DNA of 64,000 nucleotides, taken from contig OX597814.1 of NCBI GenBank assembly GCA_951406725.2, positions 33,294,001-33,358,000 on the forward strand, read 5' to 3'. Below are positions 2,879 through 58,751 of the stretch, in pieces. Origin of the DNA: Octopus vulgaris (taxonomy: Eukaryota). The first letter of the stretch is position 1. Each line of letters opens with the position of its first letter. The notes beneath the pieces are model-generated. The model made no database searches. It was not told the DNA's origin and saw nothing but the letters and a program-made list of their open reading frames with translations. The position numbers and the translations under genes are program-made.

Positions 2879-3873
2879 CATATATGTGTATGTATATATA
2901 AATATTTTAAATATATATATTACTGACACCGTTTTCTATACACCTTGCCACTCACCGAGACATTTTTGCTATCGGTGTAATATATTTTATCGACCCTAGA
3001 CAGTTGACTCACACAATGGAATCCTGTGGGTTTTCTTATCTTAACTAATGTGTGAGAAAGATATAAAGAGAATATTGCAAATTTTTGAGCCAATGGCAAG
3101 TCTTTCTACAGCAAATACAGCTTTTAGCTAATTTAGAAACACTCATTGCTCCTGTTTCCTTTGCATCGTGAACGAGCGATAACCTAGATTAACTCTGAGA
3201 CCAGTCGTATTACTTAGAACTCAATATTTTTTTATATTTTCATAGTTGATATATTCTATCAACTGAATTTTATTTTTAAGCACCATCCAGAAGAATATTT
3301 ATAGAAGTATCACTCTACTGAACATGATAAAAAATTAAATATTACTGTTACAATATATTTCGATTTTAAGTAACACGTAGAAGAAATCTGTTATAGTAGT
3401 ATTCTATGAGTGGTGGTGATTGGTCAGTGGTCAGTGGTCACTTGGTACGCAGAAACTTAATTATCAGCGGGGTTCAACATTTAATATTTTAATGTTTCTT
3501 TAAAATTAGTTCTACTCGTTATTGCAATTTATTAAAGGCTGCAATTTATAAAACTGTATATCAAAGGATCTTTTGCTTCCACTTATTCAATTTAACTTAT
3601 ACCTACTCGATCTTCACTACTATCAGCAAAATTCGCCAAGCTTCTTATGTAGGAAGTAGAGTTTCCTTCTCTCATGTCTGCTCCTATAGATATTTTCAAC
3701 ACTACTATTACTCCGAATCAAACCATCTCCAAGCAAACTACATGGACCACATAGCATTTCAACTTTCTGACTTATTAGTAGTGTTATCGAAGGCAGAACC
3801 AAACATCAGACTTTATATAGAAAATTTAATCGGTTAGAAATAAAAGTTATATTTTCTTATATTTCTAACAGAA

Positions 3874-4455
3874 ATTATATGAGACAGAAGCAGTGTTAAT
3901 ACCAAAGCTTAATATTTATCTCCGTTTCAATGTAGACACTATGTTAGATCACGGAATATTGTGATATTTCCCATGAAAGAACCTCTCATATGGGTTTGTG
4001 GTGCATCCAATCGCATCTATTCTAGGCATGAGGCGTTTTGACACAGCAGCTTTGGCGTTGCACATTTCGCGTCACTGATCCGACGTACACATATCTGACA
4101 TCAAATATATTGCTTTTCTCTTTCTTTCTCCCTCTTTGTCCCTCACCGCTCTCACTCTATTTTTTCTGTTTATGTTGTCGAACATATTTCTCTTTATGTC
4201 TATGAGGTGAAGAAAAATATTTATGTCACTCGTGTTCGATTAATAAATTGTAATATCTCTTCCTTTTTTCTCTCTCACATTCTCTTTGTATATCCGACTA
4301 TATTGCTGCGTGCACATGTCTGTGTGCGTATTTGCGCGTTTGCCATTAGTGGCAACACAGGTTGAACGCCTAGTCGTCCTTCAAAAATCGTCTGCGCCTA
4401 AGCAGCCACGCCCAGCCGTAAAATTCCGTGCACTCACGACACACACACACACACA

Positions 4456-4522
<67 letters not shown>

Positions 4523-4934
4523 CCTCCTCCTTTCATCGCCCATACCGTTTACCCAAGTCCAGGCTCTGATCTAACCAATACCACCAGTCATTTCTTCCCA
4601 GGACATCAGCCTCACAGGAATTAGCTTCGTACACTTGTGGTTTTTTTATTTTAAGTCATCTACTTATAATAGTTTAAGCACTGCGTTAATCACACCAATG
4701 TCACTGATTTCAGAGATGTTCTGAACGCTACAACAATTACCCGTCCTCAAGATTAAATTAATCAAAGAGAAGCATTATTCATGTGACAATTTTAGCCTTG
4801 CTTGGAAATATAAATATAAGTAAGCAAATATATTTATCTCCATGAGATATAAAAACTGGTATCGATGGGAACGATTTCAAGTCGTTTTGGAACCTCATCA
4901 GAAAACAAGTAATGTATTTTTTCTGCTAACGGAT

Positions 4935-5014
<80 letters not shown>

Positions 5015-5266
5015 GAAAAGCAATATATTTGATGTCAGATATGTGTACGTCGGATCAGTGACGCGAAATGTGCAACGCCAAAGCTGCTGTGTCAAAACGC
5101 CTCATGCCTAGAATAGATGCGATTGGATGCACCACAAGCCCATGTGAGAGGTTCTTTCATGGGAAATATCACAATATTCCGTGATCTAACATAGTGCCTA
5201 CATTGAAACGGAGATAAATATTATTTATAATACTTTGGTATTAACACTGCTTCTGTCTCATATAAT
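3874..5266. repeat. Long inverted repeat, arms about 255 bp (3874-4129 / 5004-5266)
   Basis: Arms are near-perfect reverse complements with a few substitutions and one small indel. Confidence 0.95.
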
Positions 5267-5345
5267 CTCTTTAGCTAATCACAGGTTTGTTTAAAGTACA
5301 ATTTGTTAATAGCCTTTCTCTGTCAGCACACACAGAGTGTAATTG

Positions 5346-5386
5346 TTATCTGATGAGACTCTAATATGAATCGAAACCAGTTAGAA
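5346..5386 (+). ncRNA. Hammerhead-ribozyme-like motif, stem I decayed
   Basis: CTGATGA-gactc taatat gaatc-GAAAC-CA-GTT. Confidence 0.55.
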
Positions 5387-6250
5387 AGATCCCAGTATTT
5401 CCACCCACAAATGAATAAATATATTTTCATTTGTTTAGAATTCAGAGCAAGACAATTTCGTAGTTTTTATGTTAAATTAAAGGTGTACTTTTAAACACAT
5501 TGCAAATTATATATCTACGTAAGCACTCCATCACTATATATGTAAGTGTGTGTGTGTATGTGTACGTGTGTGTGCGCGTGCGTATGTGTGTATATGTGGA
5601 TGGGTGCTAGTGTGTGTGGGGAGTGTTTCATTTTGCTTGTCAGTCTATATAGTTTTCTTTTCATGTGACATACTGCAGTTTCTCAGTTATTCAGATTGAT
5701 TTTCCTCCAAACATATGTTGACTCAAATACAACTTCAATAGATATTGCTACTCACACATTTTATTTTATGTCAGTATTTCTCTCCACTATCACAATTTCA
5801 CCCCTTCCCCTTTCTCTTTCCTTCCCACTGTCTATATTTATATATACATATACATATATATGTATGTATATGTATGTATGTACGTATGTATGTATGTAGG
5901 TATGTATGTATGTATGTACGTATGTACGTATCTATGTAGGTATGTGTTCGATGGTGTTGTCTGTGTGTGTTTTCATGCATATATACATACACACACCCAC
6001 ACACATACACACATACATATATATGTGTGTGTGTGTGTGTCTATCAGTCTTAATATCTTCTAAATTGTTTAAAAAATCTATCAAGTTATTAACACTATTC
6101 CATTACCAGTTTTCCATTATCTCTGAAAACAAGCATTCTGATTTGAAAATAAAACGAAACCACTTACCAATTAAAAATAGAAAAATCAACAAAGAACAAC
6201 ACAATACCTGCAACGAAAATAAAAAAATAATCATAAGAGAAAGAACACTA

Positions 6251-11418: not shown

Positions 11419-11529
11419 ACACACACGCACGCACACGCAGATACAGGCGTTGATAATACCTTAATCTCAACTCCCCTTGTCAGCGGATAAGATACACTGA
11501 TTTCATAAATGGTAATAGGTGTAAATTAT

Positions 11530-12278
11530 AAGTAATTGACCAGCCAACATCAAGCGGAGAAAAGATTAGGCCAGTGAGATGGTAGAGATGCCACTAGCAT
11601 TTTGTGACACTGTCATATTCTCTGATGAGTTCAGATTTGGTGTATTTCGTGACAGTGGTCGATAGTGGGTTTGGAGACTCTGTGATCAAGAATTTGATGT
11701 AAAAAGATTGCAGCCAACAATGAAACACGACAGTTATTCTGGCGAGCAATTTTGAGCAATGGTTGATCAGAGCTGGTAGAGTGTGAGGGTAATATAAACT
11801 CAGATAAATGTGTCCCTATTGCAAATAGGACTCCTTCCAATCTTCTGCAGTGGTGAAATTATTAAAGTATACTCTTTATTTATTGAAGATGGGGTTCCTT
11901 GTCACACGGCTAAAATAACACAGGATTGGTTGGAAGAGAATGGCATTAAAAAGCTTCATGGCCAAGCCAGCCACTAGATATGAACCCTATCAAACACTTC
12001 TGGGACATAATGGACAGGACACTTCATAAAAGCAAAGCATCTTCAAAACCAGATCTTTTACTGCATGAAACTTGGCAAGAAATTCCTCAAGAGAATGTTC
12101 GTCATCTGATCGGTAACATGCCTAATAGGGCCCTTGGATTGAAAAGTCCAAAGGACATGTCTACACAGTATTAAATATTCACATTATAACAATAAATAAA
12201 TAATTCGAAAGTGTAATTTCAGATTTAATGAATTTTTAATGATTATAATGGGGTCTACTTACTTCTGTCATATCTGTG
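11530..12278 (+). mobile_element. Tc1-like transposon remnant (DDE domain and right TIR)
   Basis: VIFSDE (~11612), FIEDGVPCHTAK, frameshifted W..Q.LDMNPIKHFW; ends CATATCTGTG like the Tc1 end at 58751. Confidence 0.9.
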
Positions 12279-12281
12279 AAT

Positions 12282-12330
<49 letters not shown>

Positions 12331-12334
<4 letters not shown>

Positions 12335-12900
12335 TGTATGAAAGAATGGAGTTGAACGACTAGTTAACAAATATCCTTTATTCTCGACATATGTTTCGAA
12401 GGCTGCATATTCCTAATTCGGAAGGAATAAGGAGTACATTATGCAGATTTCTCATCAGGAAAATCAAGGAACTTATGTCGACATCAAAATGCACAAAAAA
12501 CTTTTAGCTGACCGCTCTCAAGGAGTCCATGGCGATAATGAGTGTCTCTTTATAAGGAGTGACGTCAGAGTGGCTGAATGTAGAAGAATCTAGAAGGTTC
12601 TAAAGGTTCAAGGGTTCAAACGAATGAGAAATCTGCATAATGTACTCCTTATTCCTTCCTAATTAGGAATATGCAGCCTTCGAAACATATGTCGAGAATA
12701 AAGGATATTTGTTAACTAGTCGTTCAACTCCATTCTTTCATACACTTATAATTTTAAAATAAACATACAAATTTCCGCACAAAGACACGTAGTCTATGCC
12801 CTAGGGACGTAGCTTCAACCGTGTTCTTTCTGATGTGAATTTGCTACCCAGGTATCGGTTATCTTTCGAATTATCCTTAATAAGATCATTCATTCAACTA

Positions 12901-12903
<3 letters not shown>
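12331..12903. mobile_element. PLE-derived fold-back element in (TA)n (arms 12329-12455 / 12624-12750)
   Basis: 127-bp arms with one mismatch, 168-bp spacer, carries a hammerhead motif, (TA)n on both sides. Confidence 0.8.
12380..12464 (-). ncRNA. Minimal type-I hammerhead ribozyme, apparently intact
   Basis: AUUUUC-CUGAUGA-GAAAUCUGCAUA...UAUGCAGCCUUC-GAAAC-AUAU-GUC-GAGAAU: 6-bp stem I (one G-U), 10-bp stem II with a 2x2 internal loop, palindromic stem III, GUC triplet. Confidence 0.85.
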
Positions 12904-12956
<53 letters not shown>

Positions 12957-12957
<1 letters not shown>

Positions 12958-13340
12958 GGAAGCACTCCGTCGGTTACGACGACGAGGGTTGCGGTTGATC
13001 CGATCAACGGAACAGCCTGCTCGTGAAATTAACGTGTAAGTGGCTGAGCACTCCACAGACACGTGTACCCTTAACGCAGTTCTCGGGGATATTCAGCGTG
13101 ACATAGAGAGTGACAAGGCCGGCCCTTTGAAATACAGGTACAACAGAAACAGGAAGTAAGAGTGAGAGAAAGTTGTGGTGAAAGAGTACAGCAGGGATCA
13201 CCACCATCCTCTGCCGGAGCCTCGTGGAGCTTTAGGTGTTTTCGCTCAATAAACACTCACAACGCCCGGTCTGCGAATCGAAACCGCGATTCTATGACCG
13301 CGAGTCCGCTGCCCTAACCACTGGGTCATTGCGCCTCCAC
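12957..13340 (-). mobile_element. SINE family C (tRNA-derived, Arg-like head), full length
   Basis: A box TGACCCAGTGG, B box GGTTTCGATTCGC; near-identical to 40958-41342. Confidence 0.9.
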
Positions 13341-23945: not shown

Positions 23946-24385
23946 GAAAAATACAACAGGTATTATCATAGTCTTCAGGTTTCACATTTTACCAATCTCT
24001 GTTTCAAGATCTATATATTTGTTCAGATTTTGGTAGGCTTTGACAGATACATTTATGACAATTGGAACAGTCATATCGATGAGGTGACACGACTTTTGTC
24101 TGAAATTCTTCAGTATAATTTCTGGCTTATTTGCATCTATATTTCTGTCAGTTTAAACGGTGAAGTTCCAAAGGAGTGAGAAGGAGTCATTTTCAAGCAC
24201 TGGCGGGGGTTAATGTTCCCACCACTTTTTAACATGGGGCAGGTCCATACTTTACGGGTGCAAGAAAGCTGCACATGAAGACAATATAATCAATGGTTTC
24301 TGCTTGTTGTTTGCATACACATGTTGAGCTACTGCCGTTCTCTAAGATGTTGGCCTGGTAGTTTCTTGTTGGTAGGCATTGCTTT
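23945..24385 (-). mobile_element. Second R4/Dong-like LINE fragment (CCHC and RLE)
   Basis: CLPTRNY...CKQQAETIDYIV.MC; LLWNFTV.TDR.IDANKPEII; KYIDLETEI. Confidence 0.8.
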
Positions 24386-24537
24386 ATCATTATTATTATT
24401 ATGGAACTCAGGAATACACCAATCGTTTCTTTTCTGGAAACAAATATTAAACACACCTTCTCGAACATACATATAAGTGCTCAACATTTAACAAGTATCT
24501 GTTCATATATCGAAATGTGTCAATGTTAAGAAACATA

Positions 24538-36807: not shown

Positions 36808-36937
36808 TTTATTATATAGAAGGAGCTTCTACAGGACTAGTACTGTTTCATTCAAGAGAAATCTTCAGGAAGCTTCCTGAAGATTTCTCTTGAATGAAAC
36901 AGTACTAGTCCTGTAGAAGCTCCTTCTATATAATAAA
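36808..36937. repeat. Perfect 130-bp palindrome containing a hammerhead-like motif on both strands
   Basis: 65-bp arms, no spacer, centre AAGCTT; CTGAAGA-tttc tctt gaat-GAAAC-AGTACTA-GTC. Confidence 0.95.
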
Positions 36938-58172: not shown

Positions 58173-58751
58173 CACAGACATGCAGGAAGTAAATAGACAC
58201 GTTTAATTTTCAAAAATCTTTTTTTTTATATTAATTAGTTAAAGGAGAGGTTTTCTTCTAGCTGGTCGTCCATAATACCCAAGTTTATGCAAATATGTAA
58301 CACACGTTCTTGGACTATCTTCTAGCTGTCTTGCAATGTCAGAAGCCTTCGAACGGGGTTCGTTTTCCATAATTTTCTTCAAACAGCGAAGCTTCCTTTC
58401 CGAGGGCCCAGGTCGGCTGGATGAGAATCTGCTTATTTTTTCCCTTGGCTTTTGAATTGCACTATAATTCTATTAACACTAGCAAGAGGAATTTGAAGAT
58501 TTTCGGCAACTTTTCGCTGGCTAAGACCAGCCTTAGACTGCCCAACAATACGACCTCTTTGAAAATCTGACAGTCGTGCTGAATTTTTTGTGCGTGGCAT
58601 AGTTACTCTTCGCAAATGTTTAATATGATGGCACCTGGAATGAGAAAGGAATAATTACATTGTAAATTCTACACCACTGAAAACATATTAAGACACTTAG
58701 ATCAGAAATTTTGAAAATTTAAGGTGTCTATTTATTTCCTTCATATCTGTG
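58173..58751 (-). mobile_element. Internally deleted Tc1-like element
   Basis: About 28-bp imperfect TIRs CACAGACATGCAGGAAGTAAATAGACAC / GTGTCTATTTATTTCCTTCATATCTGTG; paired-like [26 protein letters not shown]. Confidence 0.88.

Follow-up and report, generated by a model that had tools for sequence, protein, structure and literature searches.

The segment at 12329-12903 of the window (the whole 64-kb stretch of DNA that we analysed) is best explained as the stub of a Penelope-type end module (pseudo-LTR), or of a non-coding derivative of such a module, together with an inverted partner made during insertion; we put the probability of this reading at about 0.8. The 575-bp unit would consist of two 5'-truncated copies of one repeat, set head to head by a single young insertion. 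In the mechanism that we propose, an element-encoded GIY-YIG endonuclease would nick a TA tract, and reverse transcription of one type of template would yield two cDNAs: the first, of 296 nt, would start at a short 3' end, and the second, of 280 nt, would start 153 nt further out and stop inside the core of a hammerhead ribozyme, the 5' ends of the two cDNAs being joined with one shared base. The ribozyme itself would be built for cutting as a double hammerhead. The features of the locus are the following:

12287-12330: left (TA)n tract in the sequence, likely the insertion target; where it passes into the arm is uncertain to within a few bases
12329-12624, minus strand: the longer of the two 5'-truncated copies of the end module, comprising the promoter-like region, the hammerhead and a short 3' end
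12329-12455, minus strand: left inverted-repeat arm, from direct comparison
12380-12464, minus strand: type I hammerhead motif with complete core, from inspection of core and stems, a descriptor and Rfam
12387-12394, minus strand: palindromic stem III, 8 nt, predicted as a weak hairpin in the monomer and as an 8-bp duplex in the dimer
12456-12623, minus strand: spacer of 168 nt, holding the 5' strand of stem I, the core CUG and the promoter-like module
12549-12554, minus strand: TATA-box-like TATAAA, of presumed function
12560-12567: CRE-like palindrome TGACGTCA, found nowhere else in the 64-kb window
12583-12600: four-unit heat-shock-element-like GAA/TTC array with one mismatch, one of three such loci in the window
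12624-12750, plus strand: right inverted-repeat arm, with a derived letter at 12660, from arm and family comparison
12624-12903, plus strand: short inverted 5'-truncated copy, which starts in the core at ATGAG and has the longer 3' end
12751-12903, plus strand: one-sided tail-like extension of 153 nt, from family pieces and variants
12904-12954: right (TA)n tract in the sequence

Several marks of Penelope-like elements are present at this locus: a type I hammerhead in the end module, a (TA)n target and an adjacent inverted 5'-truncated copy. Insertions of such elements are described as lacking part of their 5' end, which is often adjoined by a second copy, inverted and likewise 5'-truncated; a one-ended tail of 30-40 bp, pLTRs that carry hammerheads and, in some clades, a bias for (TA)n are also described (PMC8557442). 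The one-sided extension found here measures 153 nt against those 30-40 bp. Head to head is the commonest arrangement in another account, which proposes self-priming (PMC3846280), and both strands are nicked and extended at AT-rich DNA in a third, where reverse transcription starts 111-118 nt into the ORF and two internal start sites define the tail (PMC11167929). Against the Penelope-like reading, no RT or GIY-YIG ORF is linked to the repeat in the 506 frames of the window or in four scans of sequence collections.

Direct comparison of the arms 12329-12455 and 12624-12750 gives 127 bp with one mismatch (12419 versus 12660) around a spacer of 168 nt. This confirms the initial annotation, which also had the inverted arm start at ATGAG and lack CUG; judged from these letters, the right arm alone cannot be a ribozyme. 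The end of the unit at 12750, as annotated, is not borne out: the repeat family extends over the 153 nt at 12751-12903, and the whole insertion is therefore 12329-12903 (575 bp), with (TA)n on both sides. A blastn search reveals no other copy of 12329-12900 in the 64-kb window. The window is microsatellite-rich, animal-like DNA, and microsatellites swamp a whole-window repeat search. Beside the unit are what we take to be a SINE-like repeat at 12955-13340, directly past the right TA tract, and, at 11500-12170, presumably decayed Tc1/mariner-like transposase fragments, which we recognised by eye and which have no Pfam match. Within the extension, the segment 12812-12861 has a summed contig depth as high as that of the hammerhead, with flanks that are divergent in other subfamilies. 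It is predicted to fold as a long hairpin and could be a conserved cis element.

Part of the stretch is found in 20 of 24 listed public runs (three organisms, seven studies), in each case to at most 0.51 of its words. The runs examined are contigs, and none is recorded as RNA. We compared 12456-12903 with the contigs of four runs at 85% likeness: 1607, 1223, 67 and 80 contigs matched, covering all 30 bins. By these sequence matches, 12329-12903 belongs to a high-copy repeat family present in three organisms, summed contig depth not being equated with copy number. Among the pieces listed, the family form appears to be without the antisense arm: an opposite-strand joint 12456/12624, which restores the whole core, occurs in 14 contigs, spread over all four runs. 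Before 12624, loose ends finish in the missing CUG (7, 11 and 1 contigs), and loose ends behind 12624 continue upstream as family sequence (4 and 2 contigs), so the long copy is 5'-truncated there. The long and short copies share one base at their junction, 12624. None of the 32 listed pieces (32 of 3022) crosses the junction of the locus itself. Two of these 32 (runs X4 and X14) bridge 12750/12751 with at least 31 letters on both sides, and family variants are listed across the extension 12751-12903. In 16 and 15 contigs, the arm gives way to TA-rich letters at 12741; short 3' ends are thus common in the family.

These contigs bear on another reading of the locus, as a MITE that has the 127-bp arms as its terminal inverted repeats and TA as its target. 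Long and near-perfect inverted repeats would suit such an element, as would TA on the left flank and the remnant just to the left, Tc1-like by its motifs. However, the right arm continues into family sequence rather than target, the repeats do not bound both target junctions, and family copies join spacer and arm as one linear sense module. The family contigs largely refute the MITE, to which we give almost no weight.

Variable breakpoints of the inverted partner also speak for the Penelope-type stub. Five other head-to-head joints, each in a single contig and two of them well supported, are found among the 11 joints listed: 12499/12868, 12502/12752, 12528/12624, 12538/12829 and 12552/12732. 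All five are spacer-to-arm or spacer-to-extension joints, with differing breakpoints. Their short side measures 35 and 49 letters in two cases and 26-28 letters in three, for which the intervening letters are not known and the likeness is 85%. The remaining listed joints are two fold-backs, three that are small skips or a step back, and the family form. Against varied breakpoints, one of the five (12528/12624) has the same arm start as the locus. This joint, from one contig of run X3, has an ATG common to its two sides and could be either a deletion allele of the locus or a separate insertion that broke at the same point.

The one mismatch between the arms gives an indication of age. The letter is G in the left arm and T in the right, at a site that is variable in the family, where A, C and G are common and T accounts for less than 0.1% of depth (run X3). 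Because T is nearly absent from family contigs, it is the right arm that bears the new change. One mismatch in 127, a divergence of 0.8% (95% interval 0.02-4.4%), supports the initial suggestion that the structure is young. The letters at 12659 and 12743 are common to both arms and rare in family contigs, which fits a single template for both arms; since no run contains more than 0.51 of the words, these 'rare' letters may be the usual ones in the species from which the window comes.

Near-identical arms fit homogenisation as well as they fit youth. The right arm might then be a later product of gene conversion or of a local inverted duplication, or else an artefact of assembly. We consider this very unlikely. 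The right copy holds 153 nt of family sequence absent from the left and so was not copied from it; moreover, the mismatch letter is nearly absent from family contigs, and both ends of the structure meet (TA)n.

The hammerhead at 12380-12464 presents CUGANGA, GAAA and NUH in type I order. In stem I, 11 of the first 12 positions are paired; stem II consists of segments of 3 bp and 7 bp, separated by an internal loop, and is capped by an apical hairpin. On the minus strand, C3 falls at 12458, G12 at 12397 and C17 at 12386, and the predicted cut therefore lies between 12386 and 12385, in agreement with the position first proposed. The full Rfam Hammerhead_1 model (1-45 of 45) matches 12380-12464 on the minus strand with 29.2 bits and an E-value of 8.3e-6 in a 121-nt search. 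Position check and model match together bear out the annotated complete core, stems I and II and palindromic stem III. The score does not reach the RF00163 gathering score of 34, because 52 nt separate the core halves, far more than in the model; a 50-nt insert relative to RF00163 is placed in the stem II loop. A whole-window Rfam scan at gathering level gave no hits, and an E-value scan of 701 nt lists no hammerhead. Matches to miRNA families in the latter scan are below cut-off and reflect the hairpin; we discarded them.

A hammerhead descriptor is passed by one locus in 64 kb, the motif at 12380-12464. In a control of 100 tile shuffles, the mean was 0.03 loci, and a stem I of at least 10 pairs occurred in 0 of 100. 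As a statement about sequence, the view of this motif as the best ribozyme candidate here stands: it is the sole complete one in the window, and no variant of 10% or more is listed for its core and stems II and III in family contigs. Three variable sites of at least 10% are listed within 12624-12705, two in the region of the apical loop and one that turns a U-G pair of stem I into U-A; with the family variants at 12706-12707, stem I would grow longer. This pattern of variants is mild evidence that the fold is kept in the family.

Two degenerate hammerhead-like remnants occur elsewhere in the window, at 5340-5390 (plus strand) and 4860-4901 (minus strand), facing away from each other. Neither satisfies the descriptor; the one at 5340-5390 is a weak match to Rfam Hammerhead_3 (17.5 bits, E-value 0.79). 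Just upstream of the remnant near 5350 is a second inverted pair, 3865-4129 and 5004-5274 (272 bp, 95% identity), which is possibly another Penelope-type head-to-head structure.

Metazoan hammerheads of Penelope-like elements (PMC4209133; RF00163) have the same core, G10.1-C11.1, palindromic helix III and dimer design as the motif at our locus. They too are described in opposite-strand pairs, about 100-700 bp apart (PMC4209133). In comparison with the metazoan type I hammerheads of that source, stem II is much longer here, stem I has at least 11 bp, the Rfam score is below cut-off, and there is no unpaired base between positions 9 and 10.1. The small palindromic helix III is reported to need dimers; a single Schistosoma motif was uncleaved, and dimers cleaved at a low level (PMC4209133).

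Predicted folding of a 100-nt monomer gives most pairs of stems I and II a probability above 0.9, stem III about 0.02 and the full active fold a share of 0.9%. When two strands fold without constraint, the double hammerhead is the minimum, at -53.0 kcal/mol versus -45.6 kcal/mol for two monomers. Such models point to a plausible dimer-cleaving ribozyme. We would expect a tandem dimer to cleave in vitro with good probability, and cleavage of the monomer seems doubtful; monomer activity is nevertheless possible, since a single repeat of a mussel retrozyme is reported to cleave (PMC7229834). Lacking a tandem partner, the locus could supply a dimer only in trans. Regular cleavage at 12329-12903 in vivo is improbable.

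The antisense arm is predicted to change this fold profoundly. For RNAs starting within the spacer, the pair probability of stem I is 0.1-0.77. With a start at 12635, which brings in 12 nt of the arm, it falls below 0.01; at or beyond this start, stems I and II are below 0.02, and with the complete arm the active fold is about 99 kcal/mol away. Sequestration of the ribozyme in a read-through RNA, as initially proposed, is thus supported by predicted folding, in which 12 nt or more of the arm abolish the fold. Read-through RNA of the plus strand is without any complete ribozyme.

The initial annotation saw in this sequestration a possible built-in off state. Taken as an evolved device, the antisense arm would be an off-switch that protects a host read-through transcript from cutting by the ribozyme. 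In its favour are the loss of stems I and II with arm starts at or beyond 12635, the cost of about 99 kcal/mol with a full arm, and one other contig in which the arm begins at the same base. However, the 127-bp duplex would be irreversible, a predicted trap rather than a switch, and a lone monomer is already predicted to have less than 1% active fold. The family form has its core whole without the arm, other inversion breakpoints vary, and the locus is young (1/127), with no host exon match among 506 frames. An evolved off state is therefore unsupported; it is also weakened by the known occurrence of such structures as by-products of Penelope-like insertion, by the promoter-like module between the arms and by the lack of a host-gene Pfam match. 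We regard an off-switch as highly improbable: the off state is likely an incidental by-product of insertion, not evolved control. In the case of a Penelope-type stub, RNA read through the unit in either direction would fold into a 127-bp hairpin, a substrate of the double-stranded-RNA type and not a regulated ribozyme. In flies, siRNAs are reported to match Penelope inverted repeats (PMC3681739).

Ahead of the hammerhead, the minus strand carries in order the heat-shock-like array (12600-12583), TGACGTCA (12567-12560) and TATAAA (12554-12549). We name the heat-shock element (12583-12600) and the CRE (12560-12567) by resemblance to such motifs, and the function of the CRE is our assumption. Over 20000 shuffles of the spacer, the array arises at 0.001, TGACGTCA at 0.002 and TATAAA at 0.057, and never all together; the motifs had been seen before testing, which makes these figures post hoc. 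The array would become perfect with a family variant at 12588 (9, 2, 0 and 1 contigs). An RNA start 25-35 nt past the TATA, near 12519-12529, would yield an RNA without the arm: as the module sits between the arms, the element's own RNA would be free of antisense. A TATA box in a pLTR is described in PMC3846280; the internal promoter of Drosophila Penelope is TATA-less, unlike the TATAAA-bearing module here (PMC2377424). Elsewhere in the window, a palindromic multi-unit GAA/TTC array at 36859-36886 lies at the centre of an apparent other fold-back.

We looked for coding content in the window and for relatives outside it. None of 506 non-repetitive frames of at least 42 residues has a Pfam match at the curated cut-off, be it to RT, GIY-YIG or a host gene. 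Short exons would escape this frame scan, and the locus could therefore lie in an intron. Any ORF would lie beyond the point at which the stub is cut off. The end module has no coding frame: an ATG frame at the core stops after 25 codons, and after 12 in the right arm. Pfam matches below cut-off comprise zf-RVT at 24232-24480 (minus strand), a Tc1/Sleeping Beauty HTH at 58242-58654 (minus strand) and five DUF/PDU matches. Four scans of sequence collections (one metagenome, two viral, one prokaryote) reveal no true relative; the viral scans gave 0 and 0 matches and the prokaryote genome scan 0. A gapped hammerhead pattern retrieved three metagenome loci (L001-L003), all of one sequence. We rejected them as chance matches, which have only the 14-nt stem III word in common with the element and no hammerhead fold. 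The pattern is there antisense to a broken frame that we take to be LINE-like RT, at its YADD motif. We found no paper with a title on an octopus or cephalopod hammerhead ribozyme, and the main text of PMC13282606 does not mention a hammerhead or ribozyme.

The lack of a coding frame and the type I hammerhead with a dimer-type stem III are also what would be expected of a non-LTR retrozyme in tandem arrangement (a short repeat that codes for no protein, carries a hammerhead and makes circular RNA), of which the locus would be a rearranged fragment. Metazoan retrozymes are likewise non-coding, low in GC, high in copy number and equipped with a type I hammerhead, and they are reported from invertebrates, molluscs among them, with a unit length of about 170-400 nt (PMC7229834). 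They have been proposed to derive from Penelope-like pLTRs (10.64898/2026.07.22.740005). However, retrozymes are tandem (PMC7229834), and the locus has no such arrangement: a tandem copy is absent from the window, and a head-to-tail link from extension to spacer is absent among the 11 joints listed. The module, moreover, is already at least 449 nt long and continues upstream; its 5' end lies outside the stretch compared with the contigs, where a tandem joint may occur. A retrozyme origin thus appears unlikely.

In its architecture, the proposed Penelope-type stub agrees with endonuclease-positive Penelope-like elements: these too combine a truncated, inverted copy set head to head with an extension on one side only, a TA-rich target, and a hammerhead and a TATA-like box in the end module (PMC8557442, PMC3846280). 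It differs from them in that our scans link no ORF to it, and we assign it to no clade among Penelope/Poseidon, Neptune, Nematis and Hydra. The Poseidon element PAc of Anolis carolinensis offers a further parallel in some respects: it has an ATG at the core and stem II, AT-rich targets and defined 3' ends about 110-130 nt downstream, as does our locus (PMC11167929). The PAc ORF runs on from the hammerhead, whereas the ATG frame here soon ends; the PAc ribozyme is reported to need assistance from protein and to be dispensable for insertion in vitro (PMC11167929).

It is conceivable, if rather improbable, that we are dealing with a young, very high-copy Penelope-type family that combines a heat-shock/CRE/TATA promoter with an unusually long-armed, dimer-dependent hammerhead and whose inverted copies tend to stop in the core. 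If this were true, each stub would make a stress-inducible, self-cleaving RNA from within, and any read-through RNA would become a long hairpin feeding silencing or editing. As the locus is likely to be read, it matters little: it is another stub of a described kind, clean and young, with an intact core that suits a cleavage assay. Its weight would grow with evidence that stress induces the promoter-like module, or with a genome-wide excess over chance of inverted arms that end at the core. Either outcome would bear on the role of the hammerhead in the Penelope life cycle and on how inverted copies arise.
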